Virus record (IMG/VR): IMGVR_UViG_3300025436_000002
Location: 96,001 to 160,000 of that record
DNA length: 64,000 nt
Direction: 5' to 3' (one strand)
Source: a virus
Within the stretch, counting starts at the first letter, position 1. Each line of letters begins with the position of its first letter. Positions 1 through 52,639 of the stretch are shown piece by piece. Both the position numbers and the translations under genes were made by a program. The notes under the pieces were generated by a model. The model did not search any database, had not been told where the DNA came from, and worked only from the letters and a program-made list of their open reading frames with translations.

Positions 1-239
1 TGGACGAAGAGGGAATCCTTTTTGGATTATACTGTAGGACTTGTAAAGAGTTATACTATTATCAAGACGTAAATCCTTATGATAATATTGATAGAATACA
101 TTACAGATCTGCGGAAGAACTTAGAGATAGACTATCCTCAGATAGTAGCAGGTTTTGTAATTATAATAGTAGCTTCAAAGTAATAACAGATGAGAAAGAG
201 ATCAATAAGTATCTTATGGTGAGGGAGTTATTAAAATGA
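1..239 (+). CDS. ELLK-tail family small protein (5' partial)
   Basis: Ends EINKYLMVRELLK*, with the TGA overlapping the ATG at 236. Confidence 0.75.
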   Translation, partial: DEEGILFGLYCRTCKELYYYQDVNPYDNIDRIHYRSAEELRDRLSSDSSRFCNYNSSFKVITDEKEINKYLMVRELLK

Positions 240-418
240 GAGAACAGATAAACTTGACTTTGGATGATTTATGTGCTATACTGGATTGGGTAGAAGAAAA
301 CTTATTTGATTGTGACATGAGAGTTGAAGATGAAAATGATAAGGGAGTAGGCAAAGCATATAAAAGAATACGTAAGGAGATAAAAATACATGAACAAAGA
401 AGAATACCAGAGGATTAA
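236..418 (+). CDS. hypothetical protein
   Basis: ATGA-coupled start with a GGAG SD. Confidence 0.65.
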   Translation: MREQINLTLDDLCAILDWVEENLFDCDMRVEDENDKGVGKAYKRIRKEIKIHEQRRIPED

Positions 419-575
419 AAGTGAATCTACTAAATCCATGGATAGTCGTCTAGGAGTAGATAGGGGCAAGTATATTAAAGATGATTCAGAATTTGATGAT
501 TCAGAAATTATAGCATTCATTGTAGCATCTATACTTGTAATTGTCTTTAGCATGTTGTTCAGGGGGATTATCTAG
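390..575 (+). CDS. small membrane protein
   Basis: AAGGAG SD; C-terminal hydrophobic helix. Confidence 0.6.
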   Translation: MNKEEYQRIKSESTKSMDSRLGVDRGKYIKDDSEFDDSEIIAFIVASILVIVFSMLFRGII

Positions 576-746
576 ATGAATGAGAAACAATGTAAGGAAT
601 GTTTAGGTACTGGGAATATAAAGCATACGTATTCAAGAGGATTGTTAATAGGTAACTACTTGGGAACATGTGACTATTGTGGAGGTACTGGAAGCAGACT
701 AGTTAAAAGTAAAACTAAACTGGATAGAAACAATAACAAACAATAA
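576..746 (+). CDS. DnaJ-type zinc-finger small protein (not in ORF track)
   Basis: 56 aa with two CxxCxGxG motifs (CKECLGTG, CDYCGGTG). Confidence 0.7.
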   Translation: MNEKQCKECLGTGNIKHTYSRGLLIGNYLGTCDYCGGTGSRLVKSKTKLDRNNNKQ

Positions 747-791
747 CTAAAATGATACTGTGATTCAAAGGCAGTCTAGGGATTAGCTACA

Positions 792-1085
792 ATGTATTAC
801 TATAAAAAAGTACAGATATCTTGCCTCTCTCTTGATATAGGTATTGGGAAATATGGAGATGATTTGAAAGACTTATTACTAAAGTGGCTACTTAGAGGCT
901 ATATCCTTAAAATATACAGAAAAGGTGAAGAGATCTTCGACGGCACAGAAAGCCTAGGTCATTTAGAGCATGACGTAAAGCATTACCAACTGAGCCAACT
1001 TCGAGGAGATACCATGGAGTTATTAGATTTAGATGGGAATCCTACAGGTCTACATGGATCTATAAGAGAAAGAAGGTATTGGTAG
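792..1085 (+). CDS. hypothetical protein
   Basis: ORF fills the operon gap. Confidence 0.55.
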   Translation: MYYYKKVQISCLSLDIGIGKYGDDLKDLLLKWLLRGYILKIYRKGEEIFDGTESLGHLEHDVKHYQLSQLRGDTMELLDLDGNPTGLHGSIRERRYW

Positions 1086-1086
1086 C

Positions 1087-1413
1087 ATGAAAGAAGGTAC
1101 TGGTAAAATGTTTAACGATGCTAAAGTAATGAAACAAGAGTATATAGCAATATCCATGAGCTCCGAGATGGATAGGCATACTTATACTTACTTTATATCT
1201 TCGGGTGTCCTCTTCTTTCAAGCTATAAAAGAAGAGGGTAGGCTAGGGAAGATCCGTAAACACTACCTAAGTAATAAGTACCCCTCTAGGGAAGACTGTC
1301 TTAAAGAACTAATTAAATTTAGTAAGGATGCATTAAATGGATATGAATTAGTAGCTGTAAGTTCACAACAAGAGATTGATAGATATATGATGACAAGGGA
1401 GCTATTAAAATGA
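1087..1413 (+). CDS. ELLK-tail family small protein
   Basis: MKQEYIAIS...IDRYMMTRELLK*. Confidence 0.8.
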   Translation: MKEGTGKMFNDAKVMKQEYIAISMSSEMDRHTYTYFISSGVLFFQAIKEEGRLGKIRKHYLSNKYPSREDCLKELIKFSKDALNGYELVAVSSQQEIDRYMMTRELLK

Positions 1414-1682
1414 ACGTAGTTAAAAATTTAGTAGCTGTGGCAATTCCTCCGTTACAGAGACTTGATACAAAGTTTTTCCACCTTGATGAGTATGGGATGT
1501 ATGTAGAGGAGTGTGTTTATCTTGGAGAAGATTACCTTGACCGTTCTACCCTACATACTCTTAGGGAAGTAGATCATGATCTTAGAAGGAGATTAGCTAT
1601 CTTTGAATGTACAAGTTTTAGTATCGTACAGGAGGAGAAAGAACTTAGGAAGTATTCTATGATTATGGAGTTGATGAGATGA
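1410..1682 (+). CDS. ELLK-tail family small protein
   Basis: ATGA overlap; LRKYSMIMELMR*. Confidence 0.8.
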   Translation: MNVVKNLVAVAIPPLQRLDTKFFHLDEYGMYVEECVYLGEDYLDRSTLHTLREVDHDLRRRLAIFECTSFSIVQEEKELRKYSMIMELMR

Positions 1683-1696
1683 ATTACAACTTTCTC

Positions 1697-3331: not shown

Positions 3332-3429
3332 CTAAGAAGAAGTACGACTGTAAAGATTATAGGTGGCAGGCATGAGTAAAAAAATATGTAGCGTTAACCC
3401 TAGACAAGGGCAAAATAAAGTACAAATAC
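3332..3429 (+). repeat. duplicated segment (paralogous to 6569-6669)
   Basis: aagaagaagtac.actgtaaagat.ata.gtggcaggcatg...tagacaagggcaaa.taa.gtacaaat is shared. Confidence 0.85.
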
Positions 3430-3606
3430 TTTATGGTAGGCAATGAATTACACATAGAGTTTTATAATGGAACTACTAACTACGCATCTGAGCAGAGTCT
3501 TGAGGAGAATTTTAAGTATGATAAAAGTACTTTAACTGACCCTTTTTTAGTGGAAGGAGTTCAAGAAGCTAATAAGTTCTTAATGGCGGGGGAGTTATTG
3601 AAATGA
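3372..3606 (+). pseudogene. ELLK-tail family gene frameshifted in an A7 run
   Basis: ATG AGT AAAAAAA TAT; an A6 run would give MSKKYVALTLDKG...ANKFLMAGELLK*. Confidence 0.75.
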
Positions 3607-3917
3607 ATAGGAAATATGTAGCATTGTCAACCTTCATAGACAGTAGGGATATAATAGAATATGTTCTGTATAGTACTCATGTCTTTAAAGGAGATGGTAA
3701 GACTTATCTCGAATGTATCACAGAAAGCATGATTGAACATAAAGATTGTCCTTATTATGCTAAAGATGTATGGGATTCCAATCTTCATACAGAAGGTATT
3801 AATATTAGAAAGTCTTTGAGTCAACACCTTAGCTATGACAGATCTCAAGGGTATAAAACAACTAGGGATGTAAAGGTTATAAACAATTTCTTAATGATGA
3901 AGGAGTTATTAAAATAA
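3603..3917 (+). CDS. ELLK-tail family small protein
   Basis: MNRKYVALS...INNFLMMKELLK*. Confidence 0.85.
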   Translation: MNRKYVALSTFIDSRDIIEYVLYSTHVFKGDGKTYLECITESMIEHKDCPYYAKDVWDSNLHTEGINIRKSLSQHLSYDRSQGYKTTRDVKVINNFLMMKELLK

Positions 3918-4284: not shown

Positions 4285-4430
4285 ATGATTAGACCCAAGT
4301 TAACTTATATAACATCTGTCCTCAATCTTACTACCATGTTTCAACTTTACGTATGGATAAGTGTAGAACAGTATCAACCAAGACTAGTATTATCAGTAAA
4401 TATTTAATGACTTTGGAGTTATTAAAATGA
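4285..4430 (+). pseudogene. ELLK-tail remnant
   Basis: The SD-linked ATG at 4285 is out of frame with the tail ISKYLMTLELLK*. Confidence 0.55.
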
Positions 4431-4711
4431 AACCAAAACTATATCCTACACAAAAGATAGAAAATGATGAAGGTATAGAATACATAGCTCTCTCGTACTC
4501 AGGTTCAAGAATATTATACGGGTACTCCTATAATAAGGATGGAAAGCTTGTAGCTCATGATATTAGTAGTAACGGAGTTCACACCTTTATGCCCAGCGGA
4601 AAACTAGATACCGAGCTACAACGAGATAGAATCTTATTTACAAATGTTAAAACTACTAAGTCTAAGAAGAAGATAAAAAAGTTACTAATGATTCGGGAGC
4701 TACTAAGATGA
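4427..4711 (+). CDS. ELLK-tail family small protein
   Basis: EYIALSY...IKKLLMIRELLR*. Confidence 0.85.
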   Translation: MKPKLYPTQKIENDEGIEYIALSYSGSRILYGYSYNKDGKLVAHDISSNGVHTFMPSGKLDTELQRDRILFTNVKTTKSKKKIKKLLMIRELLR

Positions 4712-4965
4712 TAATAATAAAAGATGAGGAGATAATATTAGCTGTAATAAAGCCCATGGACAAGACAGAAGAGCCTTATATATTCTTATACTTCTGGGAT
4801 GGTGGCAGACTTTGTTATTGGGATAACAAAGGGAGGTGGAATCGAAGTTGCCACTCTGAGCTTGATGAGTTGTATGAAGACCTTTCATCATTGAAGATCT
4901 ATGAAATAACAACGGATGAATCTGTAATAAAGAAATATATCATGGCTATGGAGTTACTAAAATGA
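4708..4965 (+). CDS. ELLK-tail family small protein (paralog of 6790)
   Basis: FLYFW....LCYWD; IKKYIMAMELLK*. Confidence 0.85.
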   Translation: MIIIKDEEIILAVIKPMDKTEEPYIFLYFWDGGRLCYWDNKGRWNRSCHSELDELYEDLSSLKIYEITTDESVIKKYIMAMELLK

Positions 4966-5252
4966 ATCCTAATGATCCTATACTAGATTTTAGTCATATA
5001 GAGCTTACTTTGATCTGCTGGGTAGCTATAAAGAATCAAAGTATGGAGCCTCTATATTTCTATGTGGATAAGGACACGGATTTATACTTCTATAACCCAT
5101 GGTATTACACTAAGTTAAGTTTAAATATTTCCCTAGACTTAGCTTATCCGCATGAGTTAAAAGATTATCTGGATGATGGTAACTATATATGGAAATCCGA
5201 TCAGTTAGGGATTGCCAAAAAGTATAGTGTACTACAGGAGTTAATGAAATGA
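4962..5252 (+). CDS. ELLK-tail family small protein
   Basis: AKKYSVLQELMK*. Confidence 0.8.
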   Translation: MNPNDPILDFSHIELTLICWVAIKNQSMEPLYFYVDKDTDLYFYNPWYYTKLSLNISLDLAYPHELKDYLDDGNYIWKSDQLGIAKKYSVLQELMK

Positions 5253-5483
5253 CTAGAGAATACATAGCTCTATCCACAAGAGAAGAAGACGGAAAGTATT
5301 GGTTATACTGGATGAAAGGATCTAAATTAATGTTCTCGGATAGGTGTGACGGTGGAGCACAGTTCAGCCAACTACTAGATTTAAAACAGAATCTTAATAG
5401 TGATAAGGTTAGTGCTATATACTTCGACTAAAGATCCAAAAAAGATAGCAAAGTTTTTAATGATAAGAGAGTTATTAAAATGA
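5249..5483 (+). pseudogene. ELLK-tail family gene, frameshifted
   Basis: The MTREYIALS frame stops at 5431; the tail TKDPKKIAKFLMIRELLK* is in another frame. Confidence 0.7.
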
Positions 5484-5725
5484 ATAAGGAATACGTAGTC
5501 ATAACTTTGAAAAAGAATGGGGATGTAAAATATAGATATTATTATATATCTGGAGAATTGTATTATGATTCCTATGGTAACTATGGTAACTATAACGTTC
5601 TCGGATCTCTTGCTCCGATAAATGATCTTGCAGCAAATCTCGATGATGATACATGCTGGGGTCATGAGACCTTGGTGGGTAATGAGGCTATAAAGTATCT
5701 AATGGTACAAGAGTTAAAAAAATAA
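5480..5725 (+). CDS. ELLK-tail family small protein
   Basis: MNKEYVVIT...AIKYLMVQELKK*. Confidence 0.85.
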   Translation: MNKEYVVITLKKNGDVKYRYYYISGELYYDSYGNYGNYNVLGSLAPINDLAANLDDDTCWGHETLVGNEAIKYLMVQELKK

Positions 5726-6346: not shown

Positions 6347-6349
6347 AGT

Positions 6350-6431
6350 AATGTAACAAAGATATTAAGACAGACTTGAAATATAGTCTGTCTTATGTTA
6401 TTCTAAGTAAGTAAGGTTAATTACTAAGGAG
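6350..6431 (+). promoter_or_regulatory. stem-loop sigma70-type promoter module
   Basis: IR taagacagact/agtctgtctta; TTGAAA 6376; TG-TATTCT 6399; gtaaggttaatt leader. Confidence 0.8.
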
Positions 6432-6438
6432 TTACATC

Positions 6439-6612
6439 ATGAGTTTTGAAATAAGTATTGAACCTAGGTGTGGAGTCTATGGAGTCGCTCATGTATTTGA
6501 TAAGACTCGTAACTTAGAGAGAGCTATCGAAAGTTGTGTCCTTAACAATAGAAATGAACTTACAACTATAAAGAAGAAGTACAACTGTAAAGATCATAAG
6601 TGGCAGGCATGA
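6439..6612 (+). CDS. hypothetical protein (57 aa, not in ORF track)
   Basis: AAGGAG SD; ends KKKYNCKDHKWQA*; its 3' end is duplicated at ~3332. Confidence 0.65.
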   Translation: MSFEISIEPRCGVYGVAHVFDKTRNLERAIESCVLNNRNELTTIKKKYNCKDHKWQA

Positions 6613-6692
6613 ATAAAGAGTATATAGCACTAACCTTAGACAAGGGCAAAGTAAGGTACAAATTCTTAATGTCTCAGGAGTTATTAAAATGA
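6609..6692 (+). CDS. 27-aa internally deleted ELLK-tail mini-gene
   Basis: MNKEYIALTLDKGKVRYKFLMSQELLK*. Confidence 0.7.
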   Translation: MNKEYIALTLDKGKVRYKFLMSQELLK

Positions 6693-6789
6693 TATCATAC
6701 GTTAATCCTTATACACCTATTGATGAAGATACTGAATACAAAGGTATATCCTATTCTGGAACAAAGATACCTAAGAGTAGGTATTCTGT

Positions 6790-7020
6790 ATGATTATAAA
6801 AGGGGAAGAGATAATAGCTGCACTCATCAACCCTGAGAGTACAACATGGGCATTCTTATACTTCTGGTCTCATGATAAGTTGTGTTATTGGGATAGTACT
6901 ATGTCATTTAATACTAGCCGATTCAGGACTCTCGAGGGGTTATCTATGGATAACCCTCACTATACATCAGACATGCAAAAGATTAGTAAGTTTTTAATGA
7001 CAAAGGAGTTATTAAAGTGA
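6790..7020 (+). CDS. ELLK-tail family small protein
   Basis: ISKFLMTKELLK*. Confidence 0.85.
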   Translation: MIIKGEEIIAALINPESTTWAFLYFWSHDKLCYWDSTMSFNTSRFRTLEGLSMDNPHYTSDMQKISKFLMTKELLK

Positions 7021-7319
7021 ATAAAACATATGTAGCCATCTTAGATAAATCATATTATGATTGTATTTATGTATTCTATTTCTATTCTAAGAAAGAAGTA
7101 TTAGTACCTTCAGGCGTTCTTATGTATGATTCATATAATAGACATACTAATAGATGTATTGATGGGAATATTTGGAGAGGGTTAGTATTAAAGTTAACTA
7201 GAGAAGCGTGGCTAAGGCAACTAAAACATGACTACAATGCTGACGACAGTACTCTTACTGATATTGACACACAGAATGATGTAGATAAATTTCTTATGGT
7301 AATAGAGTTACTAAAGTAA
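7017..7319 (+). CDS. ELLK-tail family small protein
   Basis: GTGA overlap; VDKFLMVIELLK*. Confidence 0.85.
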   Translation: MNKTYVAILDKSYYDCIYVFYFYSKKEVLVPSGVLMYDSYNRHTNRCIDGNIWRGLVLKLTREAWLRQLKHDYNADDSTLTDIDTQNDVDKFLMVIELLK

Positions 7320-8122: not shown

Positions 8123-8560
8123 ATGTTTAAAAATTTTAAGAAGCTGTTGAACTGTCAGAGGGAGATACCTAAATCCGAAGTAATACCAATAATGAGTTCT
8201 GAGGAAGAAAAAACTCAGGAGATTTGTGAAGAGCTTGTGAAATTAATGTACCGTATTCTAGAAAGTAACTTCCTTACAGATGAAATGAATAGAGAATACT
8301 TAGCCTTGTGGACTCCCATCACCCCAGATTCGAAATTTTCTAATTCTGAAGAGTACTACATCTTCTACCACTACCGTAAAAATTTAGGATACGATAGGTA
8401 TTCCAAAGGAGTTAAAGTGTCTACTGATAATAAATGGAAGACAGTTAAGGGGAATTGTTTAGATTATTTAAGGGATTACCTTGGGGAGGATAATATTACT
8501 CCCATAGAATCTCTTAAGGATGTCGATAAGTACCTAATGACGTGGGAGTTATTAAGGTGA
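8123..8560 (+). CDS. ELLK-tail family protein with a fused N-terminal extension
   Basis: Internal MNREYLAL at 8285; VDKYLMTWELLR*. Confidence 0.8.
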   Translation: MFKNFKKLLNCQREIPKSEVIPIMSSEEEKTQEICEELVKLMYRILESNFLTDEMNREYLALWTPITPDSKFSNSEEYYIFYHYRKNLGYDRYSKGVKVSTDNKWKTVKGNCLDYLRDYLGEDNITPIESLKDVDKYLMTWELLR

Positions 8561-8814
8561 ATGAATGTGTTGCTGTATCCTATAATGAAGATTGTGTTAT
8601 AAAATACTACTACCTACAACTATGTGGTAGAATGGAACTTGTCTATGATGTTATTCAGAGGGATTCATCCTCACCTAAAAGCCATGTTACCTCAAGAAGA
8701 TGTCATACTACTTTAACTGAGGAACTTGATAGAGATAAATTTTGCGAGTATACTATAGTAACGGACAAGAAGGGGATACTCTTGAAACTTATGGAATTGG
8801 AGTTAATGAGATGA
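8557..8814 (+). CDS. ELLK-tail family small protein
   Basis: GTGA overlap start; LLKLMELELMR*. Confidence 0.8.
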   Translation: MNECVAVSYNEDCVIKYYYLQLCGRMELVYDVIQRDSSSPKSHVTSRRCHTTLTEELDRDKFCEYTIVTDKKGILLKLMELELMR

Positions 8815-9080
8815 GTAGATACAAAACTATTGAGGTGTCTGACATAGTAGCCTTATCTTACAAAGCTACTTCAATGTTTATCTATGGATATTCTAAAGAG
8901 AGTAGTAGACTTCTTGTTCAGCATAGATCCTACGAAGATGGTGGAAGATCTTTAGCTATAGTGGAAATCAGTTTATCATTAGCCCACAACTTAACTCTGG
9001 ATATATCACAGGGTTACTCGACTACTAAAGACCCAAAGGAGATCGCTAAGATATTAATGACGTGGGAGTTACTAAAATGA
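8811..9080 (+). CDS. ELLK-tail family small protein
   Basis: ATGA overlap; IAKILMTWELLK*. Confidence 0.85.
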   Translation: MSRYKTIEVSDIVALSYKATSMFIYGYSKESSRLLVQHRSYEDGGRSLAIVEISLSLAHNLTLDISQGYSTTKDPKEIAKILMTWELLK

Positions 9081-9364
9081 ATAGAAAGTACATATGCCTA
9101 TATAAACAATCTCATGGATATTATGTTCTATACCGATATCCAGATTCTGAAACAGTCTATTTTGATTGTTATGATAATGACTTTAAAATTGAAGTTAAGA
9201 AGATACCCAGCAGTGCTAGGATAACTCTAGGTACTCATGGAGAAGAATATGTCCAACTCAATAGATCAAACTTAGAATCTTATGATGATCCAGATTTATT
9301 AATTCCTATTAGAAGTAAATCAGATTTGGATAAGTATTTTATGGTAGAGGAGTTGCTAAGGTAA
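9077..9364 (+). CDS. ELLK-tail family small protein
   Basis: MNRKYICL...LDKYFMVEELLR*. Confidence 0.85.
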   Translation: MNRKYICLYKQSHGYYVLYRYPDSETVYFDCYDNDFKIEVKKIPSSARITLGTHGEEYVQLNRSNLESYDDPDLLIPIRSKSDLDKYFMVEELLR

Positions 9365-9864: not shown

Positions 9865-10176
9865 ATGTTACTACTCGAGACAGGTATGATGAAATACAAT
9901 ATGACAGAAGTAGTCGCTATTCTAGCAGTAGAAGGAGATACCTCTTATATTGAATACTTCTGGACAGGATCTATTTTGAGTAGCAGGGTAAATATACCTC
10001 CCAGATATATAGGGATACCTACTAGATCTACCAATACTACATACACATGCGAGGTTAATACTTTAGAAGAGTTAGAGCATCGGGAGATGGTAACATCAAA
10101 GAACAAATATAAAGTATTTATCAAAGGAGTTCACTCAGTCAATAAGTATCTTATGATGAAGGAATTACTCAAATGA
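9865..10176 (+). CDS. ELLK-tail family small protein
   Basis: VNKYLMMKELLK*. Confidence 0.85.
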   Translation: MLLLETGMMKYNMTEVVAILAVEGDTSYIEYFWTGSILSSRVNIPPRYIGIPTRSTNTTYTCEVNTLEELEHREMVTSKNKYKVFIKGVHSVNKYLMMKELLK

Positions 10177-10481
10177 ATAAAAGTGTCTCAAAGATTTATA
10201 CACATTGTTACGGTGATGACAAACTAATAGCCATAGCTGAATTTACAACGAGGTCAATTGGCAGTAATATTCTTTATAGGTATTGGTACATGAGTAGTAA
10301 CTTACTTAGTAATAATACTCTTAACACTTCATACCTTGAGAGAAGCGAGTATGGTCATTTATTGGATATTCAATCAGACTTTGAACAAGTTAGAAGCGAA
10401 GTAGCTAGATACTCAGGGAGGTTGATAACTGATCAGAAAGCTCTAGATAAACATATGATGATGAGAGAGTTATTAAAATGA
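10173..10481 (+). CDS. ELLK-tail family small protein
   Basis: LDKHMMMRELLK*. Confidence 0.85.
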   Translation: MNKSVSKIYTHCYGDDKLIAIAEFTTRSIGSNILYRYWYMSSNLLSNNTLNTSYLERSEYGHLLDIQSDFEQVRSEVARYSGRLITDQKALDKHMMMRELLK

Positions 10482-10819
10482 AAATAAAAGAGTTATTACT
10501 AGATTTTATAATACTACTTAATGTATTAGTACTGCCTACCCTGCTTCCAGAGATGTGTTGGATGAAAGTATGCTTTGAAGAATTCAATTATAGTCATCCC
10601 TTAATATCATGGCTAACCATGATAATTCCAGTTGTCGTATATTTCAAGGTTGCCTCATTCCTACTCCCTAAATTTATACTGTACGTATTTCCGAAAAGAT
10701 TTTTAGACTCTAATTTAGAAGCTAGATATGGAACTCTGACAGATGAACAAGCTACAGTATTTATAGTTTTACTTATAGGTATTGGACTCATATTTGCTTT
10801 AATTAATTTATATATTTAA
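10478..10819 (+). CDS. membrane protein (about 3 TM helices)
   Basis: Hydrophobic segments; ATGA-coupled. Confidence 0.7.
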   Translation: MKIKELLLDFIILLNVLVLPTLLPEMCWMKVCFEEFNYSHPLISWLTMIIPVVVYFKVASFLLPKFILYVFPKRFLDSNLEARYGTLTDEQATVFIVLLIGIGLIFALINLYI

Positions 10820-10831: not shown

Positions 10832-11071
10832 ATGAAATGTAAAATTATCGCAATAGTTTTGATTAAGGAAAGTCGTAGAGTTACTAGACTATATTTTATG
10901 GATGAAAATTCCACACTATGCTATGTACATCCATGGCTACCAACTCGATTTATAAGTGCATGTAGGGATTTAAAATCATTATCTAAGATCTTTCATAGTC
11001 CAGACACGGAGTTAATTATAGATAAAAATAAAATTAACAAGTATATTATGGCACAGGGGTTATTGAAATGA
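10832..11071 (+). CDS. ELLK-tail family small protein
   Basis: INKYIMAQGLLK*. Confidence 0.8.
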   Translation: MKCKIIAIVLIKESRRVTRLYFMDENSTLCYVHPWLPTRFISACRDLKSLSKIFHSPDTELIIDKNKINKYIMAQGLLK

Positions 11072-11301
11072 TGGAATATGTAGCCCTAGTTCTTATAAAT
11101 AATGTACTAGAATTAGGGTATTTTTATCAGGAAGATAGGCTTTGTTATAGTTACTTTAATGGTTGCGGTTTCTATTATATCAGTCGTCACATCACATTAG
11201 AGACGTGTCTAAAAAATAGTTCTAAATTTTTAGGGTACTCAGTAGTAACGGATATAAAATGCATGAATAAACATCTTATGGCACAGGAGTTATTGAAATG
11301 A
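11068..11301 (+). CDS. ELLK-tail family small protein
   Basis: MMEYVAL...MNKHLMAQELLK*. Confidence 0.85.
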   Translation: MMEYVALVLINNVLELGYFYQEDRLCYSYFNGCGFYYISRHITLETCLKNSSKFLGYSVVTDIKCMNKHLMAQELLK

Positions 11302-12587: not shown

Positions 12588-13064
12588 ATGTTAAGATTTA
12601 GATTAGACGGGGATATACTTATAACTACTGAATCTTCTGGAGGATTCTTTTATAGTGAACCTCGTAATTTTTATTGTGATATTAAAGAGTGGGTACGTTT
12701 TGAAGTCAACAGTAAAGATGGTAAACGATTTGCTATCCAAAAAGTTCGTGAGGATGATAAACCTAGATACTTAGCCAATGTTGAGAGAGCACATATTCAA
12801 GCTCGTGAGGATGCTGAGAGTGCAAGAATAGCTGAGATACGTACTAAAGAATTTGAAGCTCACGAAAGACTCTATAAGAATGTTAACAGGGAGCTTGAGA
12901 GTTATAAAGACAGTGTAGAACACTTAGACAATTATGGTGATCTAATTAATAAGAAGAACATAGAAGTTAATTGTAAATATGAAGTATACGGTTATAAATA
13001 TGTTGATGGAAGACCTTTTCATAATACCGAAAGAGGCATGAGTAACATAGCTAAATATTTTTAA
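12588..13064 (+). CDS. hypothetical protein (paralog of 26577)
   Basis: Shared RL.G..L.TTE and CKYE.YGY..V.G.PFHNT. Confidence 0.8.
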   Translation: MLRFRLDGDILITTESSGGFFYSEPRNFYCDIKEWVRFEVNSKDGKRFAIQKVREDDKPRYLANVERAHIQAREDAESARIAEIRTKEFEAHERLYKNVNRELESYKDSVEHLDNYGDLINKKNIEVNCKYEVYGYKYVDGRPFHNTERGMSNIAKYF

Positions 13065-13076: not shown

Positions 13077-13310
13077 ATGAACGCTTATAGTAAATATTGT
13101 ACTAACTGTTCTTATAAGAAAACTACGCCAGGTTTCGGAGACCCTCATGAATGTGCTACATGTCAAGTGAACATGCAGTACCCTAAAACAATTTTATGTG
13201 ATGAGTGTGGGAAAGCCATAACAAAGAATAATAAGAAGAATCTAACTGAATCCACCTGTGATGCTTGTATACCTGAGAAGTATCTAAAATTTTTAAAAAA
13301 AGTAGATTAA
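13077..13310 (+). CDS. Cys-rich zinc-binding small protein
   Basis: Four CxxC pairs. Confidence 0.7.
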   Translation: MNAYSKYCTNCSYKKTTPGFGDPHECATCQVNMQYPKTILCDECGKAITKNNKKNLTESTCDACIPEKYLKFLKKVD

Positions 13311-13333
13311 TAAAATTATAAGGAGACAAAACA

Positions 13334-13546
13334 ATGGAAAGAATTCCTCAATCAGAAGTTGATAAGTTCCAGAGAGCTGGGAAGAAGTACCAAGTTGTAG
13401 TAAAGACTGAAAATGGTGTAGAGTCCCCAATAGAGAAACCATATCCAGATATGGATGGAGCTAGAGCATGTATAACCTTCATAGAGGATTACGCCAGAGA
13501 AAATAATCCTGATCGTGTATTATCATTTTATATTAAGGAGGTATAA
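13334..13546 (+). CDS. hypothetical protein
   Basis: AAGGAG SD. Confidence 0.7.
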   Translation: MERIPQSEVDKFQRAGKKYQVVVKTENGVESPIEKPYPDMDGARACITFIEDYARENNPDRVLSFYIKEV

Positions 13547-13750: not shown

Positions 13751-15094
13751 ATGAGTACAGATATTAAACCCTTAAACAGTGTTACTTATTTTACAAAAGA
13801 GTCTGAGGATAGAGCTTTGAAGACTCATTACGGAGTTTCCCTTATGGGTTACATCCTAAAACTATTAGGAAGAAATGCAAAGTATGTAAAGGCTAGGGCA
13901 TCTGAATTAGAACTTGATACTGGAATAAAATATGAACTAGAAATAGAAGATTATGCTAAGATAAAAAGCGTAAAACCTATGGGAACTTCCCTAGCTCCAT
14001 ACAAAGCATGCTTACCTGAACTTAGAACATCGTTACTATACGACGCTATCTGGAAGGTCCAGAATGACAGTATTCGAGATAAACTTCTTGAAGATATAAG
14101 GGAAGACCTTTACGGAGAATCTAAGTATGTAGGAGAAACTATTCCAGTTAAAGTTAATAAGGAGACAGAAGTGAACTATCAAGAAAAAGAAGACATACTT
14201 AATAAGTACCTAAGGGAAGTTATAAATAATCAAGATTCTGAGGTTTCTACACTAAAAGTTAAGGAGAATATTTACCTAAGTAGTAAGCCGACCCTTGAGC
14301 ATATCCAAGCTAAAATAATCTCTCAACTAAGTCTAGGGGGAGTACTGGCAGGAGTACTTCAAAGAAGTGTATGCGACAGAGCAGGATGCTCTAAAACAAG
14401 ATACTACATGGCGTTAAATGGCTTAGGCTCTCTGATAGTTAAGAAACTGAGCAAGTCTGGGAGTGTTAATGTAGTACTTATGAGAATGCCTTCCGTAGAA
14501 ACTTCGGGTAATGAGGAGAAAACAATGATTAAAGATATGGTAGAGGAACGTATTGAACGAGAGATACTAGAACAACTTAAACAAGGTGAGATGCTTTCTA
14601 GTACTTTAAGAGAGAAGGTAACTAAGAAATTAGATGTATCAGATCCTAGATTTTATGCATCTTTGAAAAATCTAGGCTTACTTGTCAGTGTGAGGCAAGA
14701 GGGGTCTAAAAAGTATAGATGTCTGTCCAGTGGTATTGAAGAGAAGGCTACGGAGCAACCTGTTATCTTTAAAATTGAAGAAGTTGTGAAACCTACGATC
14801 ATTAAGAGTTCTACAGTAAATCCTAACGAATATGGAGTAGAAGTCAGTATCATAGGATCAGACGTAGTCATTCAAAAATCTCCTACTGGGAGGGAACTTA
14901 CATCAGTAGAGGTAGCTCCTTCTCAAGCCCAAGTTACCACATATAAAGTAAAACAAGGAGACTTCCAAGCGTTTGCTCATGATAACTTAGAAGTGGCAAA
15001 AGGGTATGGAATGTGTTTAAGAGACCGAGGTTGGTCAGCAGTTCAGATATTCAAGGAAGTAGTTATCAAGACATCAGAAGTAGTAGAATTTTAG
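13751..15094 (+). CDS. hypothetical protein, possibly with tandem winged-helix-like DNA-binding repeats
   Basis: 447 aa; two similar segments (SKTRYYMALNGLG, SDPRFYASLKNLG). Confidence 0.7.
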   Translation: MSTDIKPLNSVTYFTKESEDRALKTHYGVSLMGYILKLLGRNAKYVKARASELELDTGIKYELEIEDYAKIKSVKPMGTSLAPYKACLPELRTSLLYDAIWKVQNDSIRDKLLEDIREDLYGESKYVGETIPVKVNKETEVNYQEKEDILNKYLREVINNQDSEVSTLKVKENIYLSSKPTLEHIQAKIISQLSLGGVLAGVLQRSVCDRAGCSKTRYYMALNGLGSLIVKKLSKSGSVNVVLMRMPSVETSGNEEKTMIKDMVEERIEREILEQLKQGEMLSSTLREKVTKKLDVSDPRFYASLKNLGLLVSVRQEGSKKYRCLSSGIEEKATEQPVIFKIEEVVKPTIIKSSTVNPNEYGVEVSIIGSDVVIQKSPTGRELTSVEVAPSQAQVTTYKVKQGDFQAFAHDNLEVAKGYGMCLRDRGWSAVQIFKEVVIKTSEVVEF

Positions 15095-15740: not shown

Positions 15741-16010
15741 TTGAAGGATAAAGAATACTTATTTAAACAATACTTTCCTGCCCCCAAGTATACTACTTAC
15801 TATTTTGTATTAGGGGGTAAGCTTATGGCGGAGAGAAGATATGCTAGTAGACGAAGCCCTGAGACCTACGAGTGTGGTCTTAAGTTAAGCCAGTTATATT
15901 TTTGTGAGGGAGATACTAATTTATATTTTTGTGTGGGAGATATTAATTCCGAGATATTAAATGAATCTTTATTAAATAGATACCTAATGCTAGAGGAGTT
16001 GAGTAAGTGA
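15741..16010 (+). CDS. ELLK-tail family small protein
   Basis: LNRYLMLEELSK*. Confidence 0.8.
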   Translation: MKDKEYLFKQYFPAPKYTTYYFVLGGKLMAERRYASRRSPETYECGLKLSQLYFCEGDTNLYFCVGDINSEILNESLLNRYLMLEELSK

Positions 16011-16291
16011 ATCTTAAGTGTAATAACTTTTTAAAATATTTCGGAACTATCAAAAATTCAAGAATAGGTGACATTACTATACTCGGTTATGCGAGGAATC
16101 TTGGATGTCTCCATGGAAGTTTTTCCGAAATGTATCTGAGGAGATATGGGGATACTCTCCTTGATAGTAAGGAAGCACTTCCTGTATCTTTTAATGATGT
16201 AGAGGTACGTTCTTTCATGGGGGTCAGTTGTAATGATTTCGATATTCAAGAGGTTATGAAGTATTCAATTATGTTGGAGCTATTGAGATGA
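16007..16291 (+). CDS. ELLK-tail family small protein
   Basis: VMKYSIMLELLR*. Confidence 0.8.
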   Translation: MNLKCNNFLKYFGTIKNSRIGDITILGYARNLGCLHGSFSEMYLRRYGDTLLDSKEALPVSFNDVEVRSFMGVSCNDFDIQEVMKYSIMLELLR

Positions 16292-16396
16292 TTAAGAAGC
16301 ACCTATCCATGCAGACTGGGCAAGCTCCTAAGGATTCAAAGTTTACTTGGATAATTTATATAGCTCAACCTTTCATTCATGGAGAATATTTAATGG

Positions 16397-16851: not shown

Positions 16852-16903
16852 AGAAAAGAGGATACTTAATAAATATCTAATGTGCGGAGAGTTATTAAAA
16901 TGA
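16848..16903 (+). pseudogene. near-empty ELLK junction remnant
   Basis: About 52 bp between two junctions; the out-of-frame tail reads LNKYLMCGELLK*. Confidence 0.7.
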
Positions 16904-35571: not shown

Positions 35572-35581
35572 GGAGAAAAAC

Positions 35582-35776: not shown

Positions 35777-35778
35777 CC

Positions 35779-36329: not shown

Positions 36330-36595
36330 ATAGAGAATATATATCAGTCAGTTACTACCGTAGACGAAATGATTTAAAATATATAATTAAGATATATTTC
36401 TATTACGAAGGAATTATCTCCTACACGTATAATGATAATGTATACTCCACAGGTCGTAAGTATTTTAAAGCTTTTATCAATAGCGAACAAAAAAGTATCT
36501 TGCAAAATAAATATACAATGGGGTTTGATAGAGGCTTCGTACATGGAGTACAAGAAGTTAATAAATGTTTAATGATGTTGGAGTTATTGAAATGA
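36326..36595 (+). CDS. ELLK-tail family small protein
   Basis: MNREYISVS...VNKCLMMLELLK*. Confidence 0.85.
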   Translation: MNREYISVSYYRRRNDLKYIIKIYFYYEGIISYTYNDNVYSTGRKYFKAFINSEQKSILQNKYTMGFDRGFVHGVQEVNKCLMMLELLK

Positions 36596-36819
36596 GAAGA
36601 TTTAATAGAAAAGAAGATGCTCCTTTTGGCTCGTCATGGATAAGAGTTGCTGGGAAGTTTAAATCTGAGACAACTAAAGCTCTTGGATTTGAGTATAAAG
36701 ATTATGGAACAGTTTGGCTTCCTAAATCTAAAATGTACTGTATTGACAATGGCGTTACTGAGATAAACTACTATGTCCAAAAATGGTGTCTTGCTAATAG
36801 TAAAATTAAAATTGTATAA
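36592..36819 (+). CDS. small phage protein (WLPKS motif)
   Basis: ET.KA...VWLPKS; ATGA-coupled. Confidence 0.7.
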   Translation: MRRFNRKEDAPFGSSWIRVAGKFKSETTKALGFEYKDYGTVWLPKSKMYCIDNGVTEINYYVQKWCLANSKIKIV

Positions 36820-36827
36820 GGGAATCG

Positions 36828-37043
36828 ATGAAAAATATTGACATAGCAAAAACAATTGATGGTGAAGGTACTTACTATTTAGATAGATATAGAGGAGGCA
36901 CTGTTTGGTTAAGCTATAAAGACTTATCTGGTCTGGTGTCCGACTCTTTGGAACTTTTTTTAAAATACCATAACGCAATAACTCTCCTAATCTCCGAGAA
37001 AGAATTAAACAATTTACTCATGGCAGAGGAACTTGGTAAGTAA
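36828..37043 (+). CDS. ELLK-tail family small protein
   Basis: LNNLLMAEELGK*. Confidence 0.75.
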   Translation: MKNIDIAKTIDGEGTYYLDRYRGGTVWLSYKDLSGLVSDSLELFLKYHNAITLLISEKELNNLLMAEELGK

Positions 37044-37447: not shown

Positions 37448-38929
37448 ATGATTAACAGAATTAAAAATTTGATAAACGAGTTGGTTGGGGAAGTTACTCA
37501 ACCTATAGTAAACTCGGAAAACTTTAAAAAATGGTTTGACGATAGTAAAATTGTAGATGAGCATGGAGAACCTTTAGTCGTCTACCATGGTACTAATAAA
37601 AACTTTGTAGAGTTCTCTCATGAAGAGATAGGGAGTGGTTCTGGAAACAGGGGTCATTATGGGGAAGGCTTTTATTTCTCGTATGATATACGAGAAGCTA
37701 AGGGCTACGGTAAGAACTTACTAGAAGCTTATCTTAAAATAACTAACCCTTTTGATGCGGGTAATCCTAAAAACTTTGAAAAGTATGCTGAAGATTACGG
37801 ATTTAAAAAAGAAGATTTAGCTATTAACTTTGGATGGCTTATAAGTAGTATTAGGAAGACTGATAAGGTAGCTCATGAGTTAGCTCTGTTAGTAGATGGA
37901 TACGGATTTGAAAAAGGCTGGGAAGTATTCATAGAAAATCATGATGGAAAAGTTCCAGAATCTAAATTAGACTTAAATGAAGTATCTAACTGGATATCTG
38001 AATATTGTAACTCTGATTCTAAGTGGGCTGTTCCCGACTACATAAAAGAAGAATTAAAAGTACTTGGGGAAACTCCAGTATATGAACAAGGTTACGAAGC
38101 TGGTTCTGAACCAAATCTATTATATATGACTGACTATGGACAATCTGGAAGTATAACTAAAACCCTTAAAGAAGACGGATACGATGGAGTTCTTGCAGGA
38201 AGTGAAGTAGTTGCTTTCTATCCGAATCAAATTAAATCAGTTGATAACAAGGGTACTTTTAATCCTAACTCTAATAGTGTGTATGAAAGTGATGATAAGA
38301 CTGAAACAGATAGTTTCAAGACATGGTTCGACGGAAGTAGGGTTGTAGATGAACAAGGTAATCCTCTAGTTGTTTATCATGGAACTAGTGCATCTTTTGA
38401 TACTTTCTCATTAAAACACTTAGGTATCTCGACTAAGGCATCTTCTGCAAAGCAAGGATTCTTCTTCGCTTCTGATGAAGAAACTGCAAGAGGGTATGCT
38501 AATTTTGCTGGAGAACTAGCAGTCCAAGATCTTATAGATAAAGCGGGAAGGATGGAACGATTAAAGAAATGGGACATGGCTGTCTTATACACTAAAAAGG
38601 CTGAGGACTTAGAAGAGAGTGGCGAACATTTGAAGAACTCTACGGTAATGAAAGCTTATTTAAAACTAGAAAACCCTATCATAATTGATGCTGACGGAGA
38701 GTCTTTTGTGGATTTTGAAGATGAAATTCACAAAGCTATTGAAGACTCTAAACGAAGAGGTAGGGATGGAGTTATCATTAAGAACCTCGTAGACAATGCA
38801 GACTATAGTAGCTCTAGGATAGCTACTCACTATCTAGTATTTTCCCCTAATCAAATTAAATCTGTCAATAATAAAGGTACCTTTAGTTTAGATTCTGATA
38901 ATATATATGAACAAGAGGAGGGGATGTAA
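37448..38929 (+). CDS. tandem ART-PolyVal-like (ADP-ribosyltransferase fold) domain protein with leader
   Basis: Two copies of FK.WF..S..VD..G.PLVVYHGT...GF(Y/F)F...A.GY...AYLK..NP...DGV...F.PNQIKSV.NKGTF. Confidence 0.75.
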   Translation: MINRIKNLINELVGEVTQPIVNSENFKKWFDDSKIVDEHGEPLVVYHGTNKNFVEFSHEEIGSGSGNRGHYGEGFYFSYDIREAKGYGKNLLEAYLKITNPFDAGNPKNFEKYAEDYGFKKEDLAINFGWLISSIRKTDKVAHELALLVDGYGFEKGWEVFIENHDGKVPESKLDLNEVSNWISEYCNSDSKWAVPDYIKEELKVLGETPVYEQGYEAGSEPNLLYMTDYGQSGSITKTLKEDGYDGVLAGSEVVAFYPNQIKSVDNKGTFNPNSNSVYESDDKTETDSFKTWFDGSRVVDEQGNPLVVYHGTSASFDTFSLKHLGISTKASSAKQGFFFASDEETARGYANFAGELAVQDLIDKAGRMERLKKWDMAVLYTKKAEDLEESGEHLKNSTVMKAYLKLENPIIIDADGESFVDFEDEIHKAIEDSKRRGRDGVIIKNLVDNADYSSSRIATHYLVFSPNQIKSVNNKGTFSLDSDNIYEQEEGM

Positions 38930-46774: not shown

Positions 46775-47049
46775 TGGATTTACAATATTTAGGCATAGCT
46801 TTTTATTTATATCTTATAGTTGGAATGCTCTTATACTGGAGCATTATAAATATTTTTAAAATATCAAGTAATACCAATGAACTTAGGGAAGTACTATCTG
46901 AGCATAATAAGAATAATGGATTCCATATGACCGAAGATACTATATGGACACTTATAAAATCTCCTAGAGTAATGACTTTATTTATAATTGGATATCCTCT
47001 ACTTGCATTACACTTAATAATTAAATTATTTTTTAAAAAAGTAATATGA
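46774..47049 (+). CDS. membrane protein (2 TM)
   Basis: Hydrophobic helices. Confidence 0.7.
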   Translation: MDLQYLGIAFYLYLIVGMLLYWSIINIFKISSNTNELREVLSEHNKNNGFHMTEDTIWTLIKSPRVMTLFIIGYPLLALHLIIKLFFKKVI

Positions 47050-47372
47050 GGGTATATTTTGATCCTACTATAAACTTAACATACTTAACGGGTGTAGATT
47101 CCTACGGACTCTTAAAAGCTGGAGTTGACTTAGAACTTAAAGAATATACTAATAAACTTCGTAACTACGTTAACACAGGTAGTTGGAAACTTGTAGATCA
47201 TACTTTTATCTCCGAGCGTGAAAGATCCAGATTTATTATTGTGAATAAGCACAATGTATTGTCGCATGCAGGTAGCCTTCCGGAAGTTGTATTTGGGGTA
47301 CTCTCTCACTATGAAGCTATAGATAAGAATCTATATTTTAAATTATCCATGATGACTGAGCTGTTAAAATAG
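47046..47372 (+). CDS. ELLK-tail protein
   Basis: YFKLSMMTELLK*. Confidence 0.75.
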   Translation: MRVYFDPTINLTYLTGVDSYGLLKAGVDLELKEYTNKLRNYVNTGSWKLVDHTFISERERSRFIIVNKHNVLSHAGSLPEVVFGVLSHYEAIDKNLYFKLSMMTELLK

Positions 47373-50486: not shown

Positions 50487-50495
50487 TTAAAATAG

Positions 50496-50525
50496 CCCTT
50501 TTATATTATAAATAATGTAGGAGGG
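50496..50525 (+). promoter_or_regulatory. late motif embedded in an SD-occluding hairpin
   Basis: cccttttatatta pairs with taatgtaggaggg. Confidence 0.6.
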
Positions 50526-50531
50526 ATTTTT

Positions 50532-51455
50532 ATGGAAACTAAAAAAAATATTAGAATTTTAAGTTTAGACGGAGGAGGATGCAGAGGTTTGTTATCAGCT
50601 GTTCTTCTCAAAGAGATAGAGACTAGGACAGGCAAACCTATCTCTGAACTATTCGATTTTTTCATTGGAAGCTCTACTGGAGCTATTATGTCCCTACTTA
50701 TAAATAAACATGATAATAATATACCTACTTATACTATGACAGATATTGTGGAGTTCTATACAGGATGCAGTTGTAAAACAATATTCAAAAAGAAATTCTT
50801 CAAGATGCCCTTAAATGCTGTTAGGTATCCTAGTTCTCAGATAGAGGGAGTTCTTAAAGGGTCCCTAGGTGATTCTAAAATGAAAGACTCTTTGAATCCA
50901 GTAGTGGTTACAACCTATGATACTGTGTCAAGAAACTCATTATTCCTAAATTCAGAGGATACAAAATATAATAATTTGGGTATGTGGGAATGTGCTAGAG
51001 CTTCCTCAGCAGCCCCCACTTTCTTTGAACCTTTTTCTATGGGAGATATCTGTGCTGTAGATGGGGGAGTTGTTGCAAATAATCCCGCACTTTTCGGGTA
51101 CATTGAAGCTAAGAAACTATTTCCAGACTCGGATGTTACGGTCGTGTCTTTAGGTACTGGATCCAGTGTCTCTTCTCTAAGTAAGAAAGATATGGATAAG
51201 TTTAATCTACTAACATGGGCATCTAATATTTTTGATTTTACATCGGATGCTCAATCCGATACAGTTTCATATGCTATGGGTAAACTACATGATGTATCAG
51301 ATTATTATAGATTTCAAGTTAAGTTAAATACCAAGGATGCTTCAATAGATGATACTTCGAATGCAAACTTAAATAACTTAATTAGGATAGCTAGGACTGC
51401 TATTATAACAGAATGGGCTACTGAACTTGATAGACTCATTGTATCTTTAACTTAA
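50532..51455 (+). CDS. patatin-like phospholipase
   Basis: DGGGCRG, GSSTG, SSAAPTFF, DGG..ANNP, SLGTG. Confidence 0.92.
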   Translation: METKKNIRILSLDGGGCRGLLSAVLLKEIETRTGKPISELFDFFIGSSTGAIMSLLINKHDNNIPTYTMTDIVEFYTGCSCKTIFKKKFFKMPLNAVRYPSSQIEGVLKGSLGDSKMKDSLNPVVVTTYDTVSRNSLFLNSEDTKYNNLGMWECARASSAAPTFFEPFSMGDICAVDGGVVANNPALFGYIEAKKLFPDSDVTVVSLGTGSSVSSLSKKDMDKFNLLTWASNIFDFTSDAQSDTVSYAMGKLHDVSDYYRFQVKLNTKDASIDDTSNANLNNLIRIARTAIITEWATELDRLIVSLT

Positions 51456-51530
51456 CAATACTAAACTAAACACTAGACTTAATAATCTCTATGTGTTATA
51501 TTAATAGAATAATACGTAAAGGAGATAAAC

Positions 51531-51908
51531 ATGGGAACTTTTAAAAAGAATAGAAGAATAACTGATCCTACAAGCATGGAAGATTTCTTAACCGAATGTG
51601 CCTTAAAAGGTCTTACTAATACAGAGATTGAGAACGAACTACAAATAATACTGGATAGTGATAGGCAAGGTCATGCTAATAGGTATACTCCAGAGAATAT
51701 GTCAGATCTTGTAAAACATCTTCCTAAAAAGTTAGAAGGAGTTTTAGATAAATTTAAGAGCATAAGTTCTTCTGGAAATGCAAGAGGCATGGAACATGAA
51801 GTCGATAGATACAGGTCTGGATTCTTTTCTGCATTCATGAACTTGAATTCATTCTTAGATAGCCTGTTAAAAAGTGTTGAAGAGGAGGGGTTGGGTTTAA
51901 ACGGATAA
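51531..51908 (+). CDS. hypothetical protein
   Basis: AAGGAG SD. Confidence 0.7.
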   Translation: MGTFKKNRRITDPTSMEDFLTECALKGLTNTEIENELQIILDSDRQGHANRYTPENMSDLVKHLPKKLEGVLDKFKSISSSGNARGMEHEVDRYRSGFFSAFMNLNSFLDSLLKSVEEEGLGLNG

Positions 51909-52219
51909 TGGCTAATAAAGAATTACTTGAATATTTATTTAGTACCGAAGACGGGGCTGCTCTGATAGCTAAATCTCTTGAAGATTACGAAGAGGAAACT
52001 ATTAATCTTGTAGATGCATCTAAAAATATGATATCATCAATAGCTTACGATTCATTTACGAATAGCTACAAGGGATTACTAGATGCAGATACTGGAATGT
52101 CTAGTCAAGATCTTTGTAAGTTGGCGATTGAGTCTGCTTGTACTACATTTATGATATACGGTTTCATAGTAAAAGAACAACTTACTAGATTAGAGTTAGA
52201 GAAATTAATGAATGCGTAA
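51908..52219 (+). CDS. hypothetical protein
   Basis: TAATG coupling. Confidence 0.7.
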   Translation: MANKELLEYLFSTEDGAALIAKSLEDYEEETINLVDASKNMISSIAYDSFTNSYKGLLDADTGMSSQDLCKLAIESACTTFMIYGFIVKEQLTRLELEKLMNA

Positions 52220-52228
52220 GGAGATATT

Positions 52229-52639
52229 ATGGGCATGTTTATACCAGAAGTTGAGGGTAAATTAAAAGTATTCAAATATCTACAAGATATTGTTAAATTT
52301 AATGAGGACGTGAAATTTTCTCAGATAGCCACTTCGGATGAGATGGATTTTTACGGTATGAGTAAGATTAAAAGTTCTGCCACTCTTATGATGTTTGTAA
52401 GAAGTCCTGATGTTAAATACAACCATGAAATATCGGTTTCTTTAGAAACTAATATGGAGAGTGAGATAAATAAGTTCCTTCATGAAGTCTTTAAAAAGGT
52501 AGGTAATATTGAAAGTATAGATTTTGAACTCATGCAATCCTTGTATAAGAAAGCTAAACTAGATTATAAGAAGTTCGAGAAAGGGAAGTTTAATAAAGAT
52601 TACAAGAAGGCTTTAATGGCTAAAGAATTATCTAAATAG
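52229..52639 (+). CDS. ELLK-tail protein (divergent body)
   Basis: YKKALMAKELSK*. Confidence 0.7.
   Translation: MGMFIPEVEGKLKVFKYLQDIVKFNEDVKFSQIATSDEMDFYGMSKIKSSATLMMFVRSPDVKYNHEISVSLETNMESEINKFLHEVFKKVGNIESIDFELMQSLYKKAKLDYKKFEKGKFNKDYKKALMAKELSK

Follow-up and report, generated by a model that had tools for sequence, protein, structure and literature searches.

A 64,000-nucleotide (nt) stretch of viral DNA, referred to here as the window and comprising bases 96,001-160,000 of a 170,200-bp single-contig virus record in IMG/VR (IMGVR_UViG_3300025436_000002), contains long arrays of small open reading frames (ORFs) that share one C-terminal tail, K-[YF]-L-M-x-x-E-L-L-[KR]-stop. About 70 such ORFs are present on the + strand of the genome, and they are placed in a new, undescribed family. 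The arrays are probably best explained as a tandemly expanded early gene family whose members turn over by homologous recombination at junctions lying within coding sequence, a coding variant of the shuffling associated with the promoter/stem-loop (PeSL) elements of T4-type phages. The observation of the arrays, contained in an original prediction made from the DNA letters, is confirmed, whereas its interpretation as a cassette system built on a portable tail is partly supported.

The record is classed as linear and is estimated to be about 90% complete, with nearly all genes on the + strand and a GC content of about 34%. Its first 60 kb carry genes for terminase, portal, prohead protease, tail sheath and tail fibres, and a DNA polymerase gene is located at about 65-69 kb. 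Judged by the tail sheath, the nearest phages are Rhizobium and Vibrio myoviruses of the T4 superfamily, with no more than 43% identity. The source is an uncultured T4-superfamily-like myovirus. Contigs 99.8-100% identical to the record are contained in several metagenome assemblies from ENA, JGI and SRA. Among 50,697 phage records, no DNA matching the window was found by megablast of 10 kb, and tblastn with one family member gave no match.

The shared tail and the extent of the family

The tail is confined to one strand. When run on stop-to-stop frames, a strict pattern, [LIMFS]-M-x-x-E-L-[LM]-[KR]-stop, had 52 matches on the + strand but none among the 11,342 frames of the - strand; with a looser version the numbers were 67 and none, and DNA versions of the junction between successive genes found 15-38 matches in the genome compared with 0.0 in shuffles. 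Two loose matches were dropped from the family, one being an HNH endonuclease (1762-2073; coordinates are those of the window unless stated otherwise) and the other being marginal at 6.6 bits (52229-52639). A hidden Markov model (HMM) of the family added four full-length members with variant tails and two relics. Together, members and relics span 89.4-133.0 kb of the genome, starting about 6.6 kb before the window and leaving one weak outlier at 47046-47372, and they total about 17 kb, or about 10% of the genome. Pattern and HMM counts place about 56 of them inside the window, in keeping with the 55-60 tail-bearing ORFs originally estimated.

Members are about 75-145 amino acids (aa) long and share a common layout in the alignment, in which an N-terminal strand, E-Y-V-A-L, is followed by an aromatic hairpin, Y-x-Y-Y ... 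G-x-L-x-Y, and, after a variable stretch, by the C-terminus I-T-D-x-K-E-I-x-K-Y-L-M-x-x-E-L-L-K. The N-terminal motif M(N/K)(R/K)EY(I/V)AL, with which many genes had been said to begin, is upheld: as M-x-(R/K)-(E/K)-Y-(I/V)-A-L it opens the protein in 13 of the 58 members aligned and lies deeper inside some others. Relics are common, including two frameshifted members, four tail-only mini-ORFs and one 27-aa ORF in which the N-terminal motif runs straight into the tail; the frameshift at 5249-5483 is seen in independent assemblies too.

Dual coding of the tail

In 47 of 66 tails, the stop codon overlaps the start of the next gene (ATGA or GTGA), and the other 19 end in TAA or TAG. The Shine-Dalgarno (SD) string GGAG is positioned 8 nt before the overlapping start, inside the x-E codons of the tail. 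Such overlaps occur at 36 of 62 family joints compared with 18 of 211 other joints (about 9%, from a rough gene set), and successive genes are presumably coupled in translation. The proposed dual coding is confirmed and is reflected in base composition, the bases of GGAG being enriched only in tails whose stop overlaps a start. The third base of codon -5, which supplies the first G of GGAG, is G in 42 of 47 coupled versus 7 of 19 uncoupled tails (Fisher p=3.3e-5), and the E codon is GAG in 37 of 46 coupled tails against 39% genome-wide (p=1.5e-8), the uncoupled tails using it in 12 of 19 cases.

The tail is also constrained as protein. The K(-10) position is encoded by AAG in 30 cases and by AAA in 27, the Y, F and three L positions each use several synonymous codons, and E is encoded as GAA in 16 tails; the K-Y-L-M portion sits upstream of the SD string. 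Among the 19 uncoupled genes, M is kept in 18, E in 19 and L(-3) in 19, and the last-in-array genes ending at 3917, 5725, 7319, 12512 and 24323 retain the tail ahead of TAA or TAG stops, as first noticed. Mixed synonymous codons and retention of the motif in uncoupled genes thus uphold the suggestion of protein-level selection on the tail. The ratio of nonsynonymous to synonymous substitution rates (dN/dS) was 0.26 and 0.42 overall in the two orthologue pairs available; for the tail, a comparison that the original prediction had proposed, it was lower in both pairs, over few sites. These ratios indicate that members are under purifying selection.

No stable hairpin was found at six 71-nt junctions folded as DNA (z -1.0 to +1.7 relative to shuffles). 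A role for the TAA/TGA pair contained in 'TTAATGA' in another frame was rejected, as the following gene is not read in that frame. The strings with the SD sequence at about 3018 and 3306, originally regarded as non-coding copies of the junction, are instead instances of the general 5'-leader/ribosome-binding-site motif of the phage, GGTTAATTAAAGGAG, which is also found after its early promoters. These general leaders show GGAG with an A/T-rich spacer to be the preferred initiation context of the phage.

One homologous family with relatives in other phages

The central sequences of the members had been described as dissimilar, a description that profile comparison does not sustain. In leave-one-out HMMs with the last 12 alignment columns cut, 48 of 58 bodies beat all 30 of their own shuffles, and without the tail 40 of 58 scored at least 10 bits. 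An iterative search of tail-less ORFs across the whole genome recovered family ORFs only, together with two members missed by the tail pattern, namely one frameshifted copy and one variant-tail copy. BLASTP of tail-less bodies connects just a few pairs; profiles connect most. The closest paralogues are separated by a median of 1.8 kb, compared with 13 kb for all pairs, a difference equalled in 0 of 20,000 resamplings, and because the closest paralogues adjoin, the family is attributed to tandem duplication and divergence of one gene and not to recruitment of different cassettes. The best paralogue pair is 47% identical by tail-less BLASTP; as no pair exceeds this value, the expansion appears to be old and diversified instead of a fresh amplification.

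Searches of Pfam, PHROGs and NCBIfam with members gave no model matching the family, which agrees with the initial impression that it had not been described. An exhaustive HMM search of 1.84 billion cluster representatives retrieved 84 proteins at E <=0.001, comprising 38 of the phage's own and 46 from other metagenomic sequences (the latter being 50%-identity clusters), all with the same two ends. According to its gene table, one 37-kb contig contains an unbroken run of over 50 genes, each encoding 75-120 aa and overlapping by four bases, and the distant arrays from ERZ1426851 and ERZ1426853 are likewise known from gene tables. Given these relatives and the arrays elsewhere, the arrays are a trait of a clade of uncultured phages. 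A word-indexed protein search returned nothing beyond proteins of the phage itself and a single JGI relative, and a profile search of PDB sequences returned only chance Rab matches. The sole match of the junction pattern in IMG/VR (L021) was dismissed as chance, being unrelated and of 28% GC.

Predicted fold

AlphaFold2, applied to the 58-member alignment, predicts a compact domain (pLDDT 93, pTM 0.82) in which four strands are followed by a helix, a short strand and, as the last helix at residues 67-80, the tail. The best PDB match from an exhaustive structural aligner was 2ra8_A residues 1-78 (Z 6.5, root-mean-square deviation 3.2, 70 residues aligned over model residues 5-79), the N-terminal domain of which we take to be a WGR domain; the next matches were WGR domains of PARP3 and PARP1 (Z 3.7-4.5). 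In the ESM Atlas, clusters with PF05406, viral ones among them, matched at TM 0.61-0.65, and the first-ranked protein in BFVD was a 'WGR domain-containing protein' (99 aa) from Agrobacterium phage Atu_ph07 (E 0.014). Foldseek against the PDB found nothing below E 0.3, though WGR-containing entries appear in its list, and a feature search of the ESM Atlas yielded no usable match, the Atlas's own model of the protein being poor. As the four structure libraries agree weakly and the Pfam WGR model is unmatched, the family is called WGR-like and is not filed under WGR; this assignment, which depends on models, is weak but consistent across the four libraries.

The structural matches extend to the C-terminus of the model (residues 79-81), and since these alignments take in the last helix, the tail is modelled as part of the domain. 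Its earlier description as an appended tag is therefore not favoured by the models, which place it as the last helix of a compact domain.

Strain differences and recombination

Differences between strains occur at the level of whole cassettes, with breakpoints at junctions, as had been anticipated. A contig from another assembly (L010) is without exactly one junction-to-junction unit of 230 nt, window 11071-11301, and its parental flanks switch inside a 26-nt stretch identical at both joints. A strain of 74-93% identity (L015-L017) shows the order A-D-C'-E compared with A-B-C'-C-D-E here, with 22- and 47-nt overlaps at two joints of L015. In three further contigs (L023, L026 and L041), flanks 92-98% identical adjoin family cassettes without DNA similarity to this genome, the similarity stopping at a joint or at most about 15 nt from one: in L026 it ends exactly at 10481, where other cassettes follow, and in L041 a different cassette precedes that junction. 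Contigs L022 and L035 carry only family cassettes without DNA similarity to this genome, and the member at 16288-16434, truncated here, is full-length in L023.

Genome-wide, 76 junction pairs share at least 15 nt exactly (up to 44 nt), compared with 0 gene-core pairs, and a RecA/UvsX-like gene is present in the phage. No tyrosine recombinase (PF00589) was found in the 170-kb record, which is about 90% complete, while the same search succeeded in 14 of 14 control genomes; the record likewise contains no match to the serine recombinases (PF00239). The arrays are thus integrase-free in this respect, as proposed.

Two other strain differences were observed. Within the member at 4708-4965, contigs L007, L008 and L029 carry a 24-nt in-frame deletion that removes eight residues of the aromatic hairpin region. 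A 447-aa ORF (13751-15094) is swapped for an unrelated 806-aa ORF in L023:602-3022 with conserved flanks; neither has a Pfam match, and the 447-aa ORF has no relative in JGI contigs.

Promoter/stem-loop elements between runs

The gaps between runs of members are occupied by conserved composite elements, each consisting of a stem-loop with a -35 TTG in or beside its loop, followed by TGnTAnnnT as extended -10 and by a conserved leader that has AGGAG at its end. Ten copies can be aligned, with TTG and TGnTAnnnT invariant; the stems differ in sequence, yet are stable (z -4.3 to -5.9). The copy at window 24361 matches the one at genome 89,686 exactly for at least 44 nt. Because these predicted promoters head the operons, we infer that the family arrays are early operons.

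Comparison with known systems

In T4-type phages, PeSL cassettes flank small non-essential early ORFs, and close relatives differ by genes that recombination between the repeats, without an integrase, has inserted, deleted or replaced (Arbiol et al. 2010, PMC2839356; Comeau et al. 2014, PMC4122927). Excised mini-circles are a further feature of that system. The present phage appears similar in having sigma70-like promoter and stem-loop elements between small early ORFs. It differs in that its main repeated joint is coding, consisting of the last helix, the SD string and the next start without promoter or stem-loop, and in that its units are paralogues of one family, whereas those of T4-type phages are unrelated ORFans. 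The breakpoints mapped in L010, L015, L023, L026 and L041 are located at coding stop-start joints and not in the stem-loop elements.

Translational coupling through ATGA stop-start overlaps is known from bacterial and phage operons, and the four-base overlap with the SD string inside the end of the upstream gene is common to both cases. Here, however, the overlap recurs at about 47 successive joints within one family, and the SD-bearing codons also form a conserved structural motif. Standalone phage WGR proteins and the WGR domains of PARPs (PF05406) resemble the modelled family in predicted topology and in a size of about 80-100 aa, but a sequence match to PF05406 is absent and the W-G-R motif is not conserved in the family.

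Tandem multigene families are also found in other viruses, as in the MGF (multigene family) genes of African swine fever virus and the gene 'accordions' of poxviruses. A further parallel is offered by the polyimmunity arrays of SUKH-type immunity proteins (Zhang et al. 2011, PMC3113570). All of these share tandem diverged paralogues, strain-variable content and birth and death with the present family, and they probably serve host-parasite conflict; they differ in organism and fold, and no near-identical recent copies are present here. Integrons similarly consist of arrays of small promoterless genes gained and lost as units, but IntI, attC-like hairpins and attI are missing from the present arrays and the cassettes are paralogous. 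An integron-like system was therefore excluded on its defining features, with no IntI (PF00589) in the record and no attC hairpin at six junctions. The arrays are best placed as a new variant of phage genome-plasticity mechanisms and not as a new kind of mobile system.

Interpretation and alternative explanations

According to the preferred explanation, one lineage-specific gene for a small protein would have been duplicated in tandem in an early accessory region and would have diverged to about 70 copies, organised into short operons headed by stem-loop/sigma70-type promoter elements, with each stop overlapping the next start. The C-terminal helix would have been co-opted to supply what the next gene needs for initiation, namely GGAG, a start codon and, between the two, an unstructured spacer rich in A/T, so that the tail would be subject to two constraints, as an integral helix with invariant M, E and L and as the initiation signal of its neighbour. 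Because about 70 joints share identities of 15-44 nt, the phage's own homologous recombination could delete, duplicate, reorder and exchange whole units there. The outcome would be strain-specific repertoires and decayed relics in a birth-and-death pattern.

Several observations weigh against this explanation. About ten tail-bearing ORFs are not recognised by the family model without the tail, and in some members the tail may have been transferred onto other bodies; AlphaFold2 gives the atypical member starting at 23469 a low-confidence body in which only the two C-terminal helices are better. Pfam model PF05406 matches 0 of 58 members at E up to 5, and a six-frame search of the genome with it matches only an unrelated place (14.6 bits). 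The fold matches are middling, and a Z below 8 can reflect just a common arrangement. The near-invariance of M and E in the tail exceeds the usual need of simple core packing, which leaves room for a shared binding role of the tail. The strain evidence consists of short metagenomic contigs from few samples, and selection by itself would place some of the breakpoints at gene borders, as indels that cut genes are lost; since border-respecting indels pass selection, position alone is no proof of a junction-specific mechanism, and the identities shared at crossover points are stronger evidence than breakpoint position. Furthermore, 'early', 'coupled' and 'counter-defence' are terms that we infer.

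The idea that the ORFs are not genes, and form a non-coding repeat array or an assembly artefact staying open by chance, fits the lack of database annotation, but it is extremely improbable in view of ORFs that tile one strand across 44 kb, a dN/dS below 1, a confident structure model based on co-variation, independent assemblies that are 99.8-100% identical, and homologues in other phages. It is also very improbable that the tail is kept solely for its part in initiating the next gene, as ribosome-binding site, spacer and start codon, with the amino-acid motif as a by-product. The last five codons do contain GGAG, the A/T-rich 8-nt spacer and ATG, coupled genes are enriched in GAG and in the G before it, and non-family genes use the same GGAG-plus-spacer string; nevertheless, this account is contradicted by the 19 uncoupled genes that retain the motif with varying codons. 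It likewise leaves unexplained why K-Y-L-M, upstream of the SD string, has mixed synonymous codons, why 16 tails use GAA for E, why the residues are retained in homologues of other phages, and why tail dN/dS is low in both orthologue pairs, although over few sites.

A dedicated integrase-free cassette system, with a junction under selection for exchange and with the tail as a portable tag that docks different domains on one common partner or targets them to it, is unlikely but has more in its favour. It would account for junction breakpoints and the clean one-unit deletion, for relics reduced to the tail, with or without the N-terminal motif fused to it, for the near-invariance of tail M, E and L across paralogues and other phages, and for the roughly ten unrecognised bodies, one of which is predicted to form a hairpin of helices with the tail at its end. 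Immediately downstream of the arrays are an ADP-ribosyltransferase and further large enzymes, and WGR domains partner with ADP-ribosyltransferase domains in PARPs, viral ones included. On the other side, most bodies are homologous and follow a tandem-duplication pattern, the tail is modelled within the domain with structural matches that include its helix, and ordinary homologous recombination suffices for the observed events. Quite unlikely, too, is a version in which the last helix is a shared docking helix taking about 70 WGR-like modules to one partner, with the joint selected for recombination and with excised circles; the downstream ADP-ribosyltransferase and amidoligase enzymes, or a host hub protein, may be candidates for the common partner. 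If true, it would amount to a combinatorial targeting library and the first 'coding' counterpart of PeSL cassette exchange.

Under the tandem-expansion explanation, the most likely function of the members, with about even chances, is that of diversified host-interaction or counter-defence binders on one scaffold. This role is suggested by their early position, by the fact that strains can dispense with members, by the purifying selection acting on every copy and by surfaces that vary while the scaffold stays the same. To our knowledge, it is unusual for about 10% of a phage genome to be devoted to about 70 diverged copies of an undescribed small protein, and the expansion and strain-specific repertoires point to strong, diversifying host pressure. 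A single short stretch would have three roles, as protein helix, translation-initiation signal and recombination substrate, extending into coding sequence the PeSL idea of regulatory repeats that drive modular shuffling. Should a binding or counter-defence role be demonstrated for the members, they would provide a ready-made scaffold library.

Features of the window and neighbouring genes

Table 1. Family members and PeSL-like elements, in window coordinates unless a contig is named.
Feature	Position	Strand
3' part of a member starting 75 nt before the window; tail and ATGA overlap	1-239	+
Two coupled members, 1087-1413 and 1410-1682	1087-1682	+
Member frameshifted at an A7 run (3372-3433 / 3433-3606), then uncoupled TAA member 3603-3917	3372-3917	+
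Tail-only mini-ORF 4353-4430 and three coupled members, 4427-4711, 4708-4965, 4962-5252	4353-5252	+
Frameshifted member (5249-5431 / 5400-5483) and uncoupled member 5480-5725	5249-5725	+
27-aa relic (N-terminal motif fused to tail, 6609-6692) and members 6790-7020, 7017-7319	6609-7319	+
Four members, 8123-8560, 8557-8814, 8811-9080, 9077-9364	8123-9364	+
Two members; junction at 10481 is a strain breakpoint	9865-10481	+
Six contiguous members; 230-nt unit 11071-11301 absent in contig L010	10832-12512	+
Eight members in three runs (15741-16291, 16397-16851, 16900-17958) and truncated member 16288-16434	15741-17958	+
Member 21057-21305, tail-only mini-ORF 21584-21649, member 21646-21882	21057-21882	+
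Atypical member 23469-23822 (body unrecognised) and uncoupled TAG member 24078-24323	23469-24323	+
Four coupled members (24757-25800) and tail-only relic ending at 25841	24757-25841	+
Lone member, uncoupled, TAG	26279-26566	+
Members 28228-28527, 28592-28837, 28834-29160	28228-29160	+
Two adjacent paralogues, 41% identical without tail	30551-31017	+
Last six members, 34906-35181, 35326-35571, 35779-36057, 36054-36329, 36326-36595, 36828-37043	34906-37043	+
Possible distant member, 11.4 bits, HMM positions 25-79	47046-47372	+
PeSL-like element: stem-loop over -35 TTG, extended -10 (TGnTAnnnT), leader GTAAGGTTgATTAAAGGAG	2385-2470	+
PeSL-like promoter/stem-loop	4197-4282	+
PeSL-like promoter/stem-loop, -16.7 kcal/mol, z -5.8	6349-6434	+
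PeSL-like promoter/stem-loop	9777-9862	+
PeSL-like promoter/stem-loop	15334-15419	+
PeSL-like promoter/stem-loop, almost the same sequence as the genome 89,686 copy	24334-24419	+
PeSL-like element	27929-28001	
PeSL-like promoter/stem-loop	34822-34907	+
PeSL-like elements outside the window	L005:9659-9744, 10609-10694, 13286-13371	

Just upstream of the family region lies a cluster of nine tRNA genes (L005:7159-8094, genome 87,159-88,094), one of which has the anticodon TTA and would read the UAA stop; recoding is not evident, large ORFs being intact with the standard code. Two ORFs of 158-162 aa, 12588-13064 and 26577-27065, have similar C-terminal ends and no match to the family; each follows an uncoupled family gene, and the two may represent a second small paralogous set.

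The arrays are interrupted at 31028-34812 by an enzyme island encoding an RNA ligase (PHA02142 OB-fold and RNA_ligase), an MT-A70 methyltransferase and a HAD-type phosphatase. Genes of the homing-endonuclease type are located within the array region, namely the HNH gene at 1762-2073 and a NUMOD3-motif protein at 33438-34394, and others are found elsewhere in the genome, at L002:1800-3419 and L006:2267-4186. Such nucleases are capable of stimulating recombination or amplification in their vicinity.

Large enzymes, the genes of which start at 3031, 9418, 37448, 40438, 42375, 43117, 45329, 47418, 53290, 55837 and 57587, have a second motif in common, an N-terminal leader that resembles M-I-N-R-I-K-E-L-I. 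In phage T4, internal proteins with a capsid-targeting signal are packaged and injected, and by analogy the leader may be such a signal for packaged, injected proteins. Its carriers include an ART-PolyVal ADP-ribosyltransferase (37448-38929) and four Amidoligase_2 proteins.

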